64,000 nucleotides of DNA from Candidatus Yonathbacteria bacterium (GTDB lineage: Bacteria; Patescibacteriota; Minisyncoccia; Phycocordibacterales; JACNGX01), in NCBI GenBank assembly GCA_013334825.1, contig JAAXWR010000002.1:34025-98024 (forward strand), read 5' to 3'. How positions within the stretch are numbered: position 1 is the first letter of the stretch; every line of letters starts with the position of its first letter. The notes under the pieces are model-generated. The model did no database searches, was not told the origin of the DNA, and saw nothing but the letters and a program-made list of their open reading frames with translations. The position numbers were made by a program, and so were the translations under genes. Positions 11,047 to 60,560 of this stretch are shown here, piece by piece.

Positions 11047-12402
11047 ATGATACAAGTAACAATGTTGGATTCCGGACCTACGTCTGCCGTTGAAGCGATT
11101 TCATTCGGCGCACTTGTGTGCTATCAGGGAGAGATTCCTGAATACGGCAAGAAAATTGATATCCAAAAACGTCTCTTTGAAACAGGGCACCATACGACAT
11201 TTCAACATACATACTGCTCATTCGTTATTGACGGTATTCCTGTTGGCAGTGTGACGTTCGGTCTCCATCTTCACCCGTTCTATAACACGGGACAACGGTC
11301 GGGGAGGTTCTGCTCGGGGATGTTCGCGAACCCGGATCTGGATGCGATACAAGAGTCAATCGCGACATTCTGGTCACTTGAAAAGGATGTTATGGCGGAA
11401 GTCATGGACTATGTCGCATCCGGCTTTGCTGTGTATGGAACATGGTTCGATCGTGCGAAAGAACTGACCGCGACGTATATACAGGAAGACCGCCCTTATG
11501 CTTCGGAGAAGTATGTGACGGCGAACGCGGAGAAGATAGCGCAGGAACAATTGCGCGTGTTTATTCCCGTGATATTTCCCACAGCTCTTGAGTACACTAT
11601 CAATCTATCCACACTTGCCGCGCTCTACGCAAGCGCATGGTCTCCTGTGTTACAGGATGTGACGAAACAGATGGCCGAGAGGGTGCTTGAGAAATGGCCT
11701 GAACTCTCATTCATGTTTGAAAGAGGAAGGAGATCTCTCAGTCATTTTTTCGTCTCCATGGATGATGATATTTATGACAAGAATGCCATTCTCTTTGACC
11801 CAGTCCTCAGCGTGCTTCATGTGGATGATGTTTCTGAAAGTGACATGTTCATTATTTCTGAAACGGACATGCACCCAATCAACCTCCTCCCGTTTTATCC
11901 CACATTCATGGAGTTTGATGTTGCAGAGTTAAAGACAGACGTTGAAATGTCTGTCGCGACACTCGGGCAGAAACAGCGACACAGGACTGTGCGAAGAAGT
12001 TTCCCGAGATTTACCGGGAACTTCTATCTCCCACCCGTTCCTCGCGGTTTGGGACTTGAAAGAGATGCCACACTTCTCATGGAGAAATGGATGTCACTTC
12101 GGATGAAGATACATTCGGACCTTTTCATGAATCTTGCACCGTATGGCGCAATGGTTAGATATCAGGAAATTGCTTCATTTAATTCAGCAATTCATGAAGG
12201 GGCGAAACGTCTGTGCTTATGCGCACAAGAGGAGATTTATCATCTCGCTCGTCAGGAGGAAGCACAGATTTCAAGTACTCCTTTGAGGAAATTTTTTGCT
12301 CCTCCGTGCATGGCGACAGGGAAGTGTGGTGAGGGGGTGCGGTACTGTGGCAGAGACCTCAAGAAACTGCCGGAGGATCCTTTTCCGAAACGGCGGGTAT
12401 GA
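11047..12402 (+). CDS. ThyX (flavin-dependent thymidylate synthase)-like fold protein with an altered dUMP-binding motif, fused to a roughly 235-aa Cys-containing C-terminal region
   Basis: The N-terminal 215 aa align with ThyX: 'HGHETPFEHxxFTFxVxGISRAxxxQxxRHRxxSYxxxSxRY' versus 'TGHHTTFQHTYCSFVIDGIPVGSVTFGLHLHPFYNTGQRSGRF'. RHR is replaced by HLH, and the S-G-R is kept. The C-terminal half has no recognisable homology, with several Cys near the end. Confidence 0.55.
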   Translation: MIQVTMLDSGPTSAVEAISFGALVCYQGEIPEYGKKIDIQKRLFETGHHTTFQHTYCSFVIDGIPVGSVTFGLHLHPFYNTGQRSGRFCSGMFANPDLDAIQESIATFWSLEKDVMAEVMDYVASGFAVYGTWFDRAKELTATYIQEDRPYASEKYVTANAEKIAQEQLRVFIPVIFPTALEYTINLSTLAALYASAWSPVLQDVTKQMAERVLEKWPELSFMFERGRRSLSHFFVSMDDDIYDKNAILFDPVLSVLHVDDVSESDMFIISETDMHPINLLPFYPTFMEFDVAELKTDVEMSVATLGQKQRHRTVRRSFPRFTGNFYLPPVPRGLGLERDATLLMEKWMSLRMKIHSDLFMNLAPYGAMVRYQEIASFNSAIHEGAKRLCLCAQEEIYHLARQEEAQISSTPLRKFFAPPCMATGKCGEGVRYCGRDLKKLPEDPFPKRRV

Positions 12403-13579: not shown

Positions 13580-13721
13580 CAATATTCCCCGCCCTTATGG
13601 GCGGGGTCGCGGGACAATCCCGAATGTATGTTAAGTGTATATGAGGTATAAAAATTGTGTAACTATTTAAAGGAGTCCATAAATGCGCACAACATTTATA
13701 GGGTATCGACCCCGCAGTTAT

Positions 13722-13821
13722 CCAGCTCCACTTTCATAATAAACACACATGCTATGATAGATTTTTTATCCGAGACGTGAGTATTGTTTATAGATAAAGT
13801 CTTTTATGAAAGTGGGGCTGG
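13722..13821. repeat. 100-nt palindromic element with 16-nt terminal inverted repeats CCAGCTCCACTTTCAT / ATGAAAGTGGGGCTGG (copy 1 of 2)
   Basis: The same termini and the same 100-nt length recur at 58244-58343 with an unrelated interior. The termini resemble tmRNA/tRNA acceptor ends (…CCAGCUCCAC / GGGGCUGG…). Confidence 0.6.
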
Positions 13822-13834
13822 ATGCTCCTGGGCG

Positions 13835-13872
13835 CCGAGCACCACTTTTATAACGATAAAAGTGGTGCTCGG
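13835..13872. repeat. Hairpin repeat CCGAGCACCACTTTT-N8-AAAAGTGGTGCTCGG (family member 1 of 3)
   Basis: Near-identical stems recur at 59017-59052 and 60411-60447. All are adjacent to tRNA or tmRNA sequences. Confidence 0.6.
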
Positions 13873-13873
13873 T

Positions 13874-14186
13874 TCGATACCCCCACGCGAGCCGAGCAGT
13901 CGGCTCGCTCATCTCCACACGCAAAACAACAAACCACCCTTTCGGGTGGGTTGTTTTGGTGTGGAGATGGGGGGTATTGGTCAGGAGTCCGTGAAAATCA
14001 TAGTCGCTTTGCTCCTTGATTTTCTACGGCTCACGACCCTGGCTCGGCGACAAGCACTCGCACGCAAGCGTGCTCGTCTTGTGTACCGCCTCCGCCTTTC
14101 GATACCCCCAGCGAAAAGCTCGCTTTTCGCTTCACATCTCCAATCCATAAAAAAGAAACACCTCTTTAAAGAGGCGCTTCTTTTTT
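13874..14186. repeat. Array of tmRNA-terminus-like modules, each followed by an A-run/hairpin/T-run terminator. Modules: 13874-13921 + terminator 13922-13956; 3'-end copy 13957-13974; 14095-14136 + terminator 14150-14186
   Basis: The motif 'TTCGATACCCCC-A-[short hairpin]-CATCTCCA' occurs twice (its reverse complement is GGAGATG-[hairpin]-GGGGGTATCGAA). A second copy 'CCCCCCATCTCCACACCA' of the authentic tmRNA 3' end 'CCCCCCATCTCCACCA' lies 230 nt downstream of the real one. Confidence 0.5.
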
Positions 14187-14187
14187 A

Positions 14188-14605
14188 TGGTGGAGATGGG
14201 GGGTATCGAACCCCCGTCCAAACGTGGTTTGCGAGTGGGTCTACGCGATGTAGGTTGTTTTTTGGATTTGAACCGATTGTTTTTGAAACAAACAAAACGA
14301 CAATCAGTCGAGTTTCGTCGATTCTCGAGCGTCTGATGAAACGGTCAGATGCTCCAGTCCGATGAGTATGACACCCTCTCAGACATATCGGACGTCAGAA
14401 GAGAGGACGCCGCTTAGGCGAATCGAGACACGAGGTCTTGATTAGGCGAAAGCGGGAGCGAAGGACGGTATTCCAAAGTAGGAAGAGGCAATACCTTTTG
14501 CTTTAAGAGACAAGTTCGCACTTATCGTTTGTGACGGTTTTACGAGTCATCACAGCTCGATCGCGCGCACGGGCAGAGACACGCCTGTCGAAGCCGATCA
14601 TCCCC
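14188..14605 (-). ncRNA. ssrA: tmRNA (ssrA), standard one-piece, 418 nt
   Basis: Minus-strand 5' end 'GGGGAUGAUCGGCUUCGACAGGCG' matches the conserved tmRNA 5' acceptor strand and GGnUUCGAC element. The 3' end 'GGACGGGGGUUCGAUACCCCCCAUCUCCACCA' has a T-arm, a 7-nt acceptor strand complementary to the 5' end (one G·U pair) and an encoded CCA, followed by a terminator. The gene lies immediately downstream of and co-oriented with smpB. A candidate tag ORF after '…CUCUUAAA' is GCA AAA GGU … GCC UAA, giving AKGIASSYFGIPSFAPAFA*. The tag is low confidence. Confidence 0.7.
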
Positions 14606-39628: not shown

Positions 39629-39820
39629 ACGAAGTTTCAAGTTGTTAGTTTCAAGTTGCTAGATTGGTTACGAAGTACGAACGAGTACGAACATACGAAC
39701 ATAAACTCACCAATATAGTTGTCCATGTTCAGTAGCGTTCGTATGTTCCCTAAACCGCGTAGGGTTCAGGGCAAGCGTATAAGTTCGTACTTCGTAATCT
39801 AATATTATTTACTGTACTAT

Positions 39821-40228
39821 ATGGATATCATCACCCAAAAAACTGAAGAACCAATTATTATTCTTGAGACAGAAACTACTTCTTCGCTTACTCCACCGAT
39901 TTCCTACGATGATTTTATGTCTGTTGATATTCGTGTTGGCACTATTATTGAAGCGAGTTTGTTTCCTGAAGCGCGCAAGCCGATGCATAAATTCGTGATT
40001 GATTTTGGCCAGGATATCGGTCTCCGTCGCTCATGTGGACAAATTACTCAAAACTACACCCCTGAACAATTGGTGGGCAAGCAAGTTTTAGGTGTGGTGA
40101 ATTTTCCTGAGAAACAAATCGGTCCCTATGTATCGCAAGCACTCACCTTAGGGTTTCGTGACTTTGAGAACGGTGTTGTCTTGGTAACACCAGAACATGC
40201 AGTGCCAAATGGAGAACGGTTGATGTAA
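39821..40228 (+). CDS. tRNA-binding domain protein (CsaA/Trbp111/EMAP-like OB fold)
   Basis: '…VDIRVGTIIEA…HKFVIDFGQDIGLRRSCGQITQNYTPEQLVGKQVLGVVNFPEKQIG' matches the Myf/CsaA tRNA-binding domain. Confidence 0.7.
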   Translation: MDIITQKTEEPIIILETETTSSLTPPISYDDFMSVDIRVGTIIEASLFPEARKPMHKFVIDFGQDIGLRRSCGQITQNYTPEQLVGKQVLGVVNFPEKQIGPYVSQALTLGFRDFENGVVLVTPEHAVPNGERLM

Positions 40229-40312: not shown

Positions 40313-40669
40313 ATGCAGTACGATCTTGAAAACAGAACAAAAATTTTTAGCAAGGAGGTGATTATGTTCTTAAAACGTTTACAGAAGGATGAAATAAATA
40401 GACATATCATTTCTCAACTTGTTCGTTCGGCGACTAGTGTCGGTGCGAATTATTGTGAAGCAAATGGTGCTAGTTCACAGAGAGATTTCAAACATAAAAT
40501 ATTTATCTGTAGAAAGGAAATTCAAGAAACAAAATATCGGTTAGAATTAATTGCAGAATCGAATAAAGACGAAAAAGATAGTGTTGAAAAATTATGGAAA
40601 GAAGCTCATGAATTAACTCTCATTTTTAATAAAATATCAACAACACTAAGGGAACGCACTGAAAAATAA
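40313..40669 (+). CDS. Four-helix-bundle protein (TIGR02436; the '23S rRNA intervening-sequence protein' family)
   Basis: '…EINRHIISQLVRSATSVGANYCEANGASSQRDFKHKIFICRKEIQETKYRLELI…' is the family signature. Confidence 0.8.
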   Translation: MQYDLENRTKIFSKEVIMFLKRLQKDEINRHIISQLVRSATSVGANYCEANGASSQRDFKHKIFICRKEIQETKYRLELIAESNKDEKDSVEKLWKEAHELTLIFNKISTTLRERTEK

Positions 40670-58167: not shown

Positions 58168-58244
58168 TGCCGGGGTAGCTCAGTTGGTTAGAGCATAGCA
58201 CTCATAAAGCTAAGGTCGTGGGTTCGATCCCCACCCCCGGCACC
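58168..58244 (+). tRNA. tRNA-Met (CAT) elongator-type or tRNA-Ile2 (lysidine)
   Basis: Cloverleaf: acceptor GCCGGGG/CCCCGGC, D-arm GCTC-AGTTGGTTA-GAGC, anticodon loop CTCATAA, T-arm GTGGG-TTCGATC-CCCAC, discriminator A. A G1-C72 pair argues against the initiator type. Confidence 0.85.
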
Positions 58245-58343
58245 CAGCTCCACTTTCATGGATGACGCATGTAGTATGCTTGCGTTTGTTGTTGCGACTA
58301 TAATTTTTGGTGATTTATCTTCTGTTATGAAAGTGGGGCTGGG
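58244..58343. repeat. 100-nt palindromic element, copy 2, with termini CCAGCTCCACTTTCAT / ATGAAAGTGGGGCTGG, abutting the tRNA-Met 3' end
   Basis: The termini and the length are identical to 13722-13821. The interior is unrelated. Confidence 0.6.
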
Positions 58344-58603
58344 CGAAGTGGGGCAGAGCATACGTTTATATAAGTATTTTTTCCGCAATATTCCCCCAGC
58401 ACTATGTACCACGTGGATGCACAGCAGGCCACGTGGTTGCACGGCACACTACGTGAGATGCCGGGCAACTGCGTAGTATTTGTGTAAGTTCCGCGTGTTT
58501 CTGCGTTCATTCCGCATCGCTTCCGCGTCATGCAAAACTTGCGTTTCTCCTCATAATATAGTACCCTATGGTGCATCGTCCCAAGTGGGCGAAACACTAC
58601 ATT

Positions 58604-58798: not shown

Positions 58799-58875
58799 GC
58801 GGCCGTGGTGTAGCCCGGTTAACACGTCGCTCTGTCACAGCGAAGATCGCCGGTTCAAATCCGGTCGGCCGCGCA
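58799..58875 (+). tRNA. tRNA-Asp (GTC)
   Basis: Acceptor GCGGCCG/CGGCCGC, D-arm GTGT-…-ACAC, anticodon stem TCGCT/AGCGA with loop CTGTCAC, T-arm GCCGG-TTCAAAT-CCGGT, discriminator G. A terminator follows at 58876-58917. Confidence 0.85.
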
Positions 58876-58917
58876 TAACAAGAAAGGGCTGGCTTTTGCC
58901 AGCCCTTTCTTGTTATG

Positions 58918-59125
58918 TCTATCGCGAGCCGACTGGATTTGAACACGTAGGGGGTCGGGGGCGGCGGAACGCCCCCGTGAAGGAGGTTACGTGGAACCGT
59001 GGGTTCTACGAGCGCACCGAGCACCACTTTCATAAATGAAAGTGGTGCTCGGGAGCAGTGAATATTCCGGTCGGCCGCGCATAACAAAAAGAGGTTGGCT
59101 TTTGCCAATCTCTTTTTGTGTATAC
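58918..59125. repeat. tRNA-fragment mosaic and att-like scar: an inverted tRNA-Asp-like T-arm/acceptor fragment (58920-58945), a GC hairpin, a CCGAGCACCACTTTCAT-AA-ATGAAAGTGGTGCTCGG hairpin (59017-59052), then a direct duplicate of the tRNA-Asp 3' end plus terminator (59064-59122)
   Basis: 'TCCGGTCGGCCGCGCATAACAAgAAAGggcTGGCTTTTGCCAgccCTTTCTTGTTAT' at 58860-58917 recurs as 'TCCGGTCGGCCGCGCATAACAAaAAGAggtTGGCTTTTGCCAatcTCTTTTTGT' at 59066-59122. Confidence 0.6.
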
Positions 59126-60282: not shown

Positions 60283-60358
60283 GCCAAGATAGCTCAGTTG
60301 GTAGAGCACATCCATGGTAAGGATGAGGTCTCGGGTTCGATCCCCGATCTTGGCTCCA
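60283..60358 (+). tRNA. tRNA-Thr (GGT)
   Basis: Acceptor GCCAAGA/TCTTGGC, anticodon stem CATCC/GGATG with loop ATGGTAA, T-arm TCGGG-TTCGATC-CCCGA, discriminator T, CCA encoded. Confidence 0.9.
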
Positions 60359-60410
60359 GCAGGAGCCAAGAACACAACATGCATTTATGCATGTTGTGTA
60401 GGGGATCGAA

Positions 60411-60447
60411 CCGAGCACCACTTTTGCCATTGCAAAAGTGGTGCTCG
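60411..60447. repeat. Hairpin repeat CCGAGCACCACTTTTGC-CAT-TGCAAAAGTGGTGCTCG (family member 3), preceded by GGGGATCGAA and palindromic hairpins
   Basis: The same stem as at 13835-13872 and 59017-59052. The preceding 'GGGGATCGAACCGAGCACC' mirrors 'GGGGGTATCGAACCGAGCACC' in the tmRNA-scar region. Confidence 0.6.
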
Positions 60448-60560
60448 ACATCCAGGAGTACTTGGTGAAATGTGAGCTCTGCGAAACTTTCCTCGTGATT
60501 CTTGCTTCTCGTCGTTTTTCATTCTTGATTCTTAATTCGTACTTCTTAATTCTCGTCTGC

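Follow-up and report, generated by a model that had tools for sequence, protein, structure and literature searches.

What are the palindromes that lie beside tRNA and transfer-messenger RNA (tmRNA) genes in the genome of a Candidatus Yonathbacteria bacterium, and do they form an element in their own right? In the 64,000-nt stretch analyzed here (contig JAAXWR010000002.1 of assembly GCA_013334825.1, positions 34,025 to 98,024 of the forward strand; hereafter, the window), a preliminary description had flagged five such palindromes and read them as a possible miniature mobile element targeting tRNA 3′ ends. That interpretation is partly supported. Something in this region does behave in that way; the palindromes, however, are not that something. 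They are interchangeable hairpin modules that occupy three kinds of slot (X2, X4 and terminator) in a larger unit, which we call the tRNA-tail element. Both their membership of this element and its tie to tRNA and tmRNA 3′ ends are well supported. The element has a constant architecture tailored to its cognate tRNA, shows covariation and strand polarity, and is spread among the Patescibacteria, with a few loci labelled as other phyla; between close relatives, whole units are gained and lost and hairpins are swapped.

All five palindromes were confirmed in the window sequence. The two longest, at 13722–13821 and 58244–58342, share 16-nt arms (CCAGCTCCACTTTCAT and ATGAAAGTGGGGCTGG) around interiors of 68 and 67 nt that are unrelated to one another (57% identity, compared with 54% in shuffles). 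Their lengths had been given as identical, which is true only to within 1 nt: the second hairpin measures 99 nt, or 101 nt (58243–58343) with an extra C-G pair. The other three have perfect arms, of 17 bp around a 2-nt loop at 59017–59052, 17 bp at 13835–13872 and 16 bp at 60411–60447. A chance origin is excluded, because the motif CCACTTT occurs 16 times in the window against 7.9 expected (10 of the 16 inside the flagged palindromes), and because the window holds nine perfect inverted repeats of at least 14 bp with a loop of up to 100 nt, whereas 30 Markov shuffles yielded none. Five of the nine adjoin tRNA or tmRNA genes.

As had been proposed, every flagged copy lies close to such a gene, within 470 nt downstream of the tmRNA, tRNA-Met (58168), tRNA-Asp (58799) or tRNA-Thr (60283); the RNA genes involved in the window are the tmRNA next to smpB, two tRNA-Met, tRNA-Asp and two tRNA-Thr. 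The association is general, since the arms of the 100-nt hairpin were found at 10 metagenome loci and in all 10 stood within 500 nt downstream of a tRNA (tRNA-Arg, -Glu, -Cys or -Lys). The suggested selection on the hairpins is likewise borne out by compensatory changes in the arms (for example CCAC/GTGG to CCAG/CTGG) and by a retained T·G wobble. By contrast, the proposed likeness of the termini to tmRNA ends did not hold. The local tmRNA begins with GGGGATG and ends with CATCTCCACCA, so the GGGGCTG/CAGCTCC arms are no copy of its ends. The genome-wide search for CCACTTTCAT…ATGAAAGTGG returned 0 matches in 185,579 species genomes, beside the 10 in metagenomes; the 100-nt hairpin type is confined to a few Yonathbacteria.

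When each region was read in the sense of its own tRNA or tmRNA, the same layout recurred. The unit is non-coding, spans 110–330 nt and lies downstream of a tRNA or tmRNA gene. It starts from the 3′ end of the gene, T-loop onward (copy 1), followed by a slot that holds either a terminator-type palindrome or a 100-nt hairpin. The middle consists of the complement of the acceptor 3′ strand (acc−), a small hairpin, and the complement of the T-stem 3′ strand and T-loop (T−). Hairpin X2, a short linker, hairpin X4 and copy 2, which repeats the gene end from the T-loop onward in direct orientation, complete it. An inverted copy of the last ~20 bases of the host tRNA is therefore split in two by the small hairpin, a conserved 9-bp structure (GCRAGCCAA-CTGC-TTGGCTYGC), and copy 2, which begins at T-loop position C56, makes a direct repeat of the T-loop-to-3′ end of 17–35 bp. 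Because the flagged palindromes fill hairpin slots, it is acc−, T− and copy 2, rather than the flagged arms, that derive from the tRNA.

Conservation is highest in the small hairpin, and we scanned genomes with the pattern GAGCRAKSCRACTRCTYGSMTYG. At least 118 genome loci were recovered, against about 9 expected by chance (our own estimate). Nearly all listed loci are labelled as Patescibacteria lineages and a few as Elusimicrobia or other phyla (labels as given). Among the 122 matches listed, 93 have the 3′ end of a same-strand tRNA or tmRNA no more than 120 nt upstream, covering about 20 isoacceptors, and 53 of these 93 are followed at 50–224 nt, nearly always at more than 100 nt, by a direct copy of the last 14 nt of the tRNA, sometimes in tandem. 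In this same set, the inverted copy matched the neighboring tRNA specifically: the complementary run of T− had a median of 9 for cognate and 5 for non-cognate tRNAs (p=6e-38), and that of acc− a median of 5 and 3, respectively (p=1.5e-25). The small hairpin formed a perfect 9-bp stem in 87 of the 93 listed copies, with eight compensatory stem variants. The distribution is patchy, as a copy was detectable at only 16 (~17%) of the 92 other tRNAs that the scanned loci contain. In 39 of 55 cases the two copies of the gene end were identical, and in 16 copy 2 had diverged; copy 1 is the end that ARAGORN uses for the complete tRNA. Since the changes sit in copy 2 and copy 1 completes the tRNA, splicing is not needed. 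Among tmRNA loci sampled through SmpB, the element was present in seven of eight (the window, L003, L007, L009, L143, L146 and L148) and not in L147.

Several details of these loci may be noted. Nine of them (L025, L028, L040, L043, L044, L056, L058, L072 and L101) have canonical copies scoring 43–134 bits on contigs labelled Elusimicrobia, Gammaproteobacteria, Bdellovibrionales or Verrucomicrobiae, which reflect either a real wider spread or mislabelled bins. In loci between L025 and L142 that have no terminator, the spacer between the tRNA and the small hairpin often contains a conserved motif, ATGAACGAAGTGAATG, resembling the ATGAAAGTGG core of the window hairpin arms; a C(GAA)G mini-hairpin containing tandem G·A pairs is a possible fold of this motif. 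At L148 the tmRNA was missed by ARAGORN, though a 97-bit element ending in CCCCCCATCTCCAC is present there.

Single-sequence folds of the unit agreed with one another. In these predictions acc− and T− pair with copy 2 as a closing helix, the small hairpin stands where the D and anticodon arms of a tRNA would be, and X2 and X4 branch off the end of the helix. On the tRNA-sense strand, the predicted closing helix rebuilds the acceptor/T-stem minihelix of the host, its 3′ strand continuous and its 5′ strand interrupted, as in tRNA. RNAalifold on 19 copies found compensatory changes in 21 of 30 pairs. In the model-based alignment of the 122 matches, 94.9% of cells were paired compared with 74.5% in shuffles, all 30 pairs covaried, and the covariation score was 0.396 against 0.13 in shuffles and at most 0.06 in slid controls. 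One X4 pair is a G·U wobble in 54 of about 84 sequences. The structure is also polar: of 51 copies, 50 had the more stable fold on the tRNA-sense strand (mean difference −8.8 kcal/mol, p=6e-10), where G·U pairs numbered 137, compared with 59 on the antisense strand. R1, a covariance model drawn from other lineages with no Yonathbacteria sequence among them, matched the window in two places only, with 50.3 and 50.8 bits (E~2e-13), and identified as members of the family the two tandem units, U1 and U2, that lie behind the tmRNA. R1 gave no match in the window to the units of tRNA-Asp and tRNA-Thr, which have the same architecture with other core or hairpin variants.

The tmRNA gene occupies 14188–14605 of the minus strand (ARAGORN; Rfam tmRNA, 131.9 bits), and all features of its two units are read on that strand. 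Copy 1 is its last 23 nt (TTCGATACCCCCCATCTCCACCA, 14188–14210). Between the 3′ end and U1, in the slot that precedes the core, lies terminator-type palindrome A (14145–14190; 23-nt arms, 91% complementary). U1 (13961–14141; full-length R1 match, 50.3 bits, E=2.6e-13) comprises the acceptor-strand complement (14135–14148), the small hairpin (14110–14131), the T-stem/T-loop complement GGGGGTATCGAA (14098–14109), X2 (14050–14082), X4 (13992–14026) and the direct repeat ATACCCCCCATCTCCAC (13961–13977), and the direct repeats around it are spaced 225–229 nt apart. Terminator palindrome B follows (13922–13958). The same terminator stands straight after the tmRNA in L007 and L009; as it lies directly behind the tmRNA of L009, it was probably the original tmRNA terminator.

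U2 (13672–13918; R1 match 13768–13919, 50.8 bits, E=1.9e-13) contains two of the flagged palindromes. Its acc− segment GTGGAGATG (13910–13918) is followed by a canonical small hairpin (13886–13908), with an exact match to the scan motif at 13888–13910(−) where 0.03 would be expected, and by T− (13873–13884). The flagged palindrome at 13835–13872 is its X2, and R1 aligns it to helix X2; beyond the linker CGCCCAGGAGCAT (13822–13834), the flagged 100-nt hairpin at 13722–13821 is its X4. A T-arm-like segment, ATAACTGCGGGGTCGATACCC (13701–13721), a further hairpin (13679–13699) and a terminal GGACTCC (13672–13678) close the unit.

The remaining palindromes belong to plus-strand regions. The second 100-nt-type hairpin (58243–58343) abuts the 3′ end of tRNA-Met (58168–58242/6), in the slot of the terminator in other copies; its ortholog in L150 is 94.8% identical. 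The tRNA-Asp element (58854–59119) has a 54-nt direct repeat, 83% identical at a spacing of 206, and a 17-nt inverted repeat, 94% complementary. It runs from copy 1 (58854–58875) through terminator 1 (58874–58917), the inverted copy CGCGAGCCGACTGGATTTGAA (58923–58943), X2 (58945–58992) and the linker GGAACCGTGGGTTCTACGAGCGCA (58993–59016) to X4, which is the flagged palindrome at 59017–59052, and then through the segment GAGCAGTGAAT (59053–59063) and the direct repeat (59064–59081) to terminator 2 (59084–59119). This unit represents a second core type, in common with tRNA-Arg of L017 and L021. In the tRNA-Thr element (60336–60497), which has inverted repeats, one of them 100% complementary, copy 1 (60336–60358) is followed by a GCA loop, acc− GGAGCCAAGA (60362–60371), a hairpin (60372–60399), T− AGGGGATCGAA (60400–60410), the flagged palindrome at 60411–60447 as X2, the linker ACATCCAGGAGTAC (60448–60461) and X4 (60462–60497), with decayed repeats beyond, to about 60557.

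Whole units are gained and lost between relatives. For the tmRNA we compared loci with SmpB homologues at 97% (L003), 86% (L009–L014) and 83% (L007) identity. U1 is present in the window and in L003 and absent from L007 and L009, where terminator B directly follows the tmRNA. Of five tRNA loci, four set a sister strain, L150 (90% amino-acid identity in a DUF5672 protein), apart from the window. At the first tRNA-Met, only L150 has a 305-bp unit with a 20-bp repeat starting at C56; at tRNA-Asp it has two tandem units and the window one; at tRNA-Thr a 35-bp repeat encloses one further canonical unit of L150, and the unit common to both strains has another X2; and at the second tRNA-Met a 195-nt stretch after the hairpin (58355–58549) is present in the window and absent from L150. 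This stretch contains two tandem 20-nt repeats with CCACGTGG cores (58405–58444) and a possible decayed remnant of acc− and the small hairpin, ATGCCGGGCAACTGCGTAG. A short-read contig of the same strain as the window, L001, stops at window position 13718, just before the 100-nt hairpin, and hence these repeats fragment assemblies.

All the SmpB-homologue loci have the same layout behind the tmRNA, and their X2 and X4 sequences are unrelated yet still form hairpins; in L007 the T-loop reads TTCAATT and the inverted copy AATTGAA. Across its copies the 100-nt hairpin keeps its arms and has at least five unrelated interior classes of 65–69 nt, and it was seen in three different slots and in both orientations. 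L018 has the interior of the window U2 (X2 with the 100-nt hairpin) joined to its tRNA-Glu; relative to the window tRNA-Thr copy, the X2 palindrome of L018 is flipped. Because the X2 replacement that separates L150 from the window at tRNA-Thr is the same one that separates L003 from the window at the tmRNA, hairpins seem to be homogenised or replaced within a genome.

How did such units arise? We lean, with moderate confidence, towards a modular non-coding element that has been inserted into, or duplicated at, the 3′ ends of tRNA and tmRNA genes, with the palindromes as swappable hairpin modules. The repeats that start at C56, the 3′ end carried by the element, the tandem arrays, the presence/absence differences and the patchy occupancy all point to this mobile or duplicative history. 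Each unit would bring a replacement or duplicate of the last ~18–23 nt of the host gene, from C56 to the discriminator or CCA; because the unit supplies the new 3′ end, the gene would stay intact and the unit would be bounded by direct repeats of 17–35 bp. Recombination at the T-loop may be the means by which units spread. It could be site-specific, perhaps acting on a folded single strand as with CTXφ attP or integron attC, for the site–loop–inverted-site layout is what CTXφ-like integration of a folded single strand might leave; or it could be driven by homology, with the tRNA gene serving as both arms. A compact tRNA-like fold may keep the insertion harmless to tRNA maturation, and tRNA-processing enzymes could trim the element away, making insertions neutral. 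It is unlikely, though conceivable, that the split inverted copy is a programmable guide, of RNA or folded single-stranded DNA, steering a putative recombinase, common in Patescibacteria, to a chosen tRNA 3′ end; the whole would then be a guide-directed insertion system with a logic like that of IS110 bridge RNAs and with tRNA and tmRNA genes as its natural targets.

Several observations weigh against insertion or duplication. Inspection of flanking open reading frames (ORFs) revealed no recombinase, transposase, integrase or reverse transcriptase linked to the elements, only housekeeping genes downstream, and searches of viral contigs and of phage and plasmid records found no copy. The retargeting of the inverted copy and of both repeats to ~20 different tRNAs is accounted for by none of the models tested. 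Unit losses could be plain deletions between direct repeats, and of the unit differences only the gain of U1 is polarised by outgroups. The presence of the element behind the tmRNA in nearly all SmpB-sampled loci fits vertical retention. About 20 of the 53 canonical copies have, in our reading, an intrinsic-terminator-like hairpin between the tRNA and the element, which makes the transcript model uncertain. The covariation, the conserved junction and loop nucleotides, the conserved G·U and the strict sense polarity fit a functional RNA equally well; as to the pair counts, the alignment behind them had been fitted to the covariance model.

Those same features lead to the main alternative, which we regard as somewhat unlikely: a functional structured RNA that does not move, either a tRNA-like module in the 3′ trailer of the tRNA or tmRNA or a separate small RNA. 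RNase P, RNase Z, the CCA-adding enzyme or similar tRNA enzymes would act on its minihelix mimic, and the RNA could punctuate, process or regulate the upstream tRNA, the repeats and arrays being secondary products of unequal crossing-over. The covariation of all 30 pairs with a conserved G·U, the folding advantage of the sense strand in 50 of 51 copies, an orientation always that of the tRNA, the tRNA-like topology of the closing helix and the near-constant presence after the tmRNA (seven of eight SmpB-sampled loci) are what such an RNA should show. Yet the element occupies only about 17% of the remaining tRNAs at these loci, and strains at about 90% nucleotide identity differ by whole units and by swapped or flipped hairpins. 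Moreover, an intrinsic-terminator-like hairpin often separates the tRNA from the element, and the inverted copy extends a perfect palindrome through the terminator into copy 1, which would unfold the tRNA if both were co-transcribed. Neither the loops (0 GNRA and 2 UNCG among 232 enumerated candidate hairpin loops) nor Rfam, where no family matched, offer this explanation any help.

The mobility may instead reside in the palindromes, above all the 100-nt hairpin, as autonomous miniature mobile hairpins or invertible segments beside tRNA 3′ ends, much as the preliminary description proposed. Its occurrence in three slots and both orientations, the conserved arms around interiors of 65–69 nt in at least five unrelated classes, the flipped X2 palindrome of L018 and the palindrome at 59017, which looks like a chimera of both arm types, all speak for this reading. 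We nevertheless hold this distinctly unlikely, given that no target-site duplication was found in the flanks of the palindromes themselves, that they occur solely within larger units, that the type is restricted to a few Yonathbacteria (0 genome and 10 metagenome matches), and that the interiors differ wholly between copies, unlike those of a burst of miniature inverted-repeat transposable elements (MITEs). The T-loop is a classic integrase sublocation, and the direct repeats begin there; the units might thus be scars of ordinary integrase integration, with the repeats as attL/attR cores of cargo-less islands or prophages and the palindromes as terminators or arm-type sites. The variable gap between the tmRNA and thyX, with different cargo in L003 and L007, would suit this very doubtful view. 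It does not account for the same 110–180 nt architecture at more than 100 loci of many lineages without cargo or integrase, nor for an inverted copy that matches each tRNA; compensatory changes and strand-specific wobbles are unexpected for protein-binding, double-stranded arm sites, and viral contigs, phages and plasmids gave no match. That the palindromes are chance products or plain bidirectional terminators is scarcely credible: some hairpins right after a tRNA are genuinely terminator-like, but the shuffles without a single such repeat had already refuted this idea, as do the position of the motif next to tRNAs in 93 of the 122 listed matches and the covariation of the pairs.

We found no description of the element in Rfam 15 or in the searchable literature, where searching by sequence string also gave nothing relevant, and it lacks at least one defining feature of each known family that could be tested. 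The 4227 models of Rfam 15, run at the gathering threshold on the window and 16 loci, detected only tRNA and tmRNA; with the elements alone at E<=10, nothing credible appeared, only microRNA-like hairpin noise and tmRNA_permuted below its threshold. A permuted tRNA or tmRNA or an intron-bearing tRNA was rejected, as no tRNA is left after removal of the hairpins and tmRNA_permuted reached 32 bits where 47 are required; nor did any known ribozyme or other RNA give a credible match at E<=10. A group I intron disagrees with the complete tRNA upstream of every element, the absence of any group I intron match in the Rfam searches and the location of changes in copy 2. The tRNA group I introns of Patescibacteria described in a 2026 paper are anticodon-loop introns, not a tRNA-tail element (PMC13011429). 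In MITEs, too, we found no fit: apart from tRNA-derived segments the two ends have nothing in common, the repeats on either side consist of 17–35 bp of tRNA sequence, and the interiors differ between copies. The flanks showed no Y1 HUH transposase or RAYT gene of the kind behind IS200/IS605-derived PATE and REP sequences. An integron attC was rejected because a 16–17 bp stem closes a loosely structured interior of 65–69 nt and no cassettes or integrase lie nearby. A reading as ends of large islands failed as well: the distant "direct repeats" of L037 and L049 lie inside CTP synthase-like and peptidase-like genes and are therefore chance matches, and the ORFs downstream are housekeeping genes. 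Small peptide genes starting at ATGAAAGTGG were dismissed, the motif being palindromic and the frames short and not conserved, and a tie between the orientation of the 100-nt hairpin and the replication strand is contradicted by both orientations within one array of L018. No promoter was predicted inside the 100-nt hairpin. A census of GCGAAGC mini-hairpin loops as a sign of single-stranded DNA was too noisy for use, and exact-protein look-ups for L33 gave no match.

Comparison with known systems nonetheless shows partial likenesses. As in tyrosine-integrase islands and cis-mobilizable elements (CIMEs), insertion is at the T-loop, the element supplies a new 3′ end, the displaced end becomes a direct repeat (17 bp at the tmRNA, 18 nt, or 54 nt with the terminator, at tRNA-Asp, and 20–35 bp in L150), and tandem arrays occur. 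Unlike them, the unit is only 110–330 nt long with no integrase nearby in the flanks, its inverted target copy is split by a conserved hairpin, and the same core serves about 20 tRNAs with RNA-like covariation and strand polarity. With CTXφ attP(+) and integron attC it shares a long imperfect hairpin that rebuilds the target-site duplex, a single strand that folds well, a post-integration junction of site, loop and inverted site, and conserved arms around a variable interior. It differs from both in having a tRNA gene as target and no gene cassettes, and no link to Xer or IntI was seen, none having been tested; moreover, the 100-nt hairpins are a 16–17 bp stem closing a largely unpaired interior rather than the continuous stem of attC. 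BOX, REP/BIME, RUP, Correia and MITE sequences are likewise small, non-coding, multi-copy, built of interchangeable hairpin modules and apt to break short-read assemblies. Here, by contrast, copies stand strictly at tRNA and tmRNA 3′ ends, in fixed orientation, with target-matched segments and without terminal inverted repeats plus a short target-site duplication, in most Patescibacteria lineages sampled and in a few loci labelled as other phyla.

The mascRNA of MALAT1, viral tRNA-like structures and the tRNA-like domain of tmRNA also have an acceptor/T-stem mimic with a continuous 3′ strand that closes a non-tRNA body 3′ of another RNA, whereas the mimic of the tRNA-tail element copies the neighboring tRNA exactly, its CCA is often paired and its T-loop is replaced by a helix and two hairpins. 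Finally, target-complementary internal segments in a guide–hairpin–guide order recall the bridge or seek RNAs of IS110/IS1111 and the exon-binding sites of group II introns; here, however, no recombinase, ribozyme core or Rfam match was found in the regions searched, and the target is contiguous, with both guide halves pairing to one and the same strand of it. IS110-type elements duplicate only a short core, unlike the direct repeats of 17–35 bp seen here.

If these observations hold, some of the smallest bacterial genomes known tolerate a structured non-coding element with ends tailored to each host tRNA at perhaps one in five tRNA genes. Were it mobile, it would add to mobile DNA a new class, one whose insertion follows a target-matching and possibly guide-based logic; were it an RNA, Patescibacteria would have a tRNA-like RNA of a new kind, linked to the biogenesis of tRNA and tmRNA. 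In practice, the pseudo-tRNA 3′ ends of these repeats can mislead island finders that use tRNA fragments, and the sites evolve fast enough to be useful for strain typing, their repeats being a hindrance to short-read assembly.

Some neighboring features deserve mention. In the window, a 451-aa ORF at 11047–12402, with an ortholog in L007, has a Thy1 (ThyX) domain only in residues 16–216, and its C-terminal half has no Pfam match. The smpB/tmRNA–thyX gap of L007 (10449–13369; GCA_013335575.1) contains a GIY-YIG ORF between smpB and the tmRNA and, after the tRNA-tail element, a helix-turn-helix gene and an RVT_1 reverse transcriptase of 325 aa, with ~570 nt of non-coding DNA in front; the reverse transcriptase could be of the retron or defence type. 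L003 has a RadC–DNA methylase fusion at the position of this cargo. Elsewhere in the window, with no tRNA near, a 130-nt hairpin at 39668–39797 sits between the two transketolase half-genes and adjoins small ORFs at 39821–40228 and 40313–40669; its 15-bp arms (TTACGAAGTACGAAC) are perfect, and ACGAAC repeats abound in its 100-nt loop.

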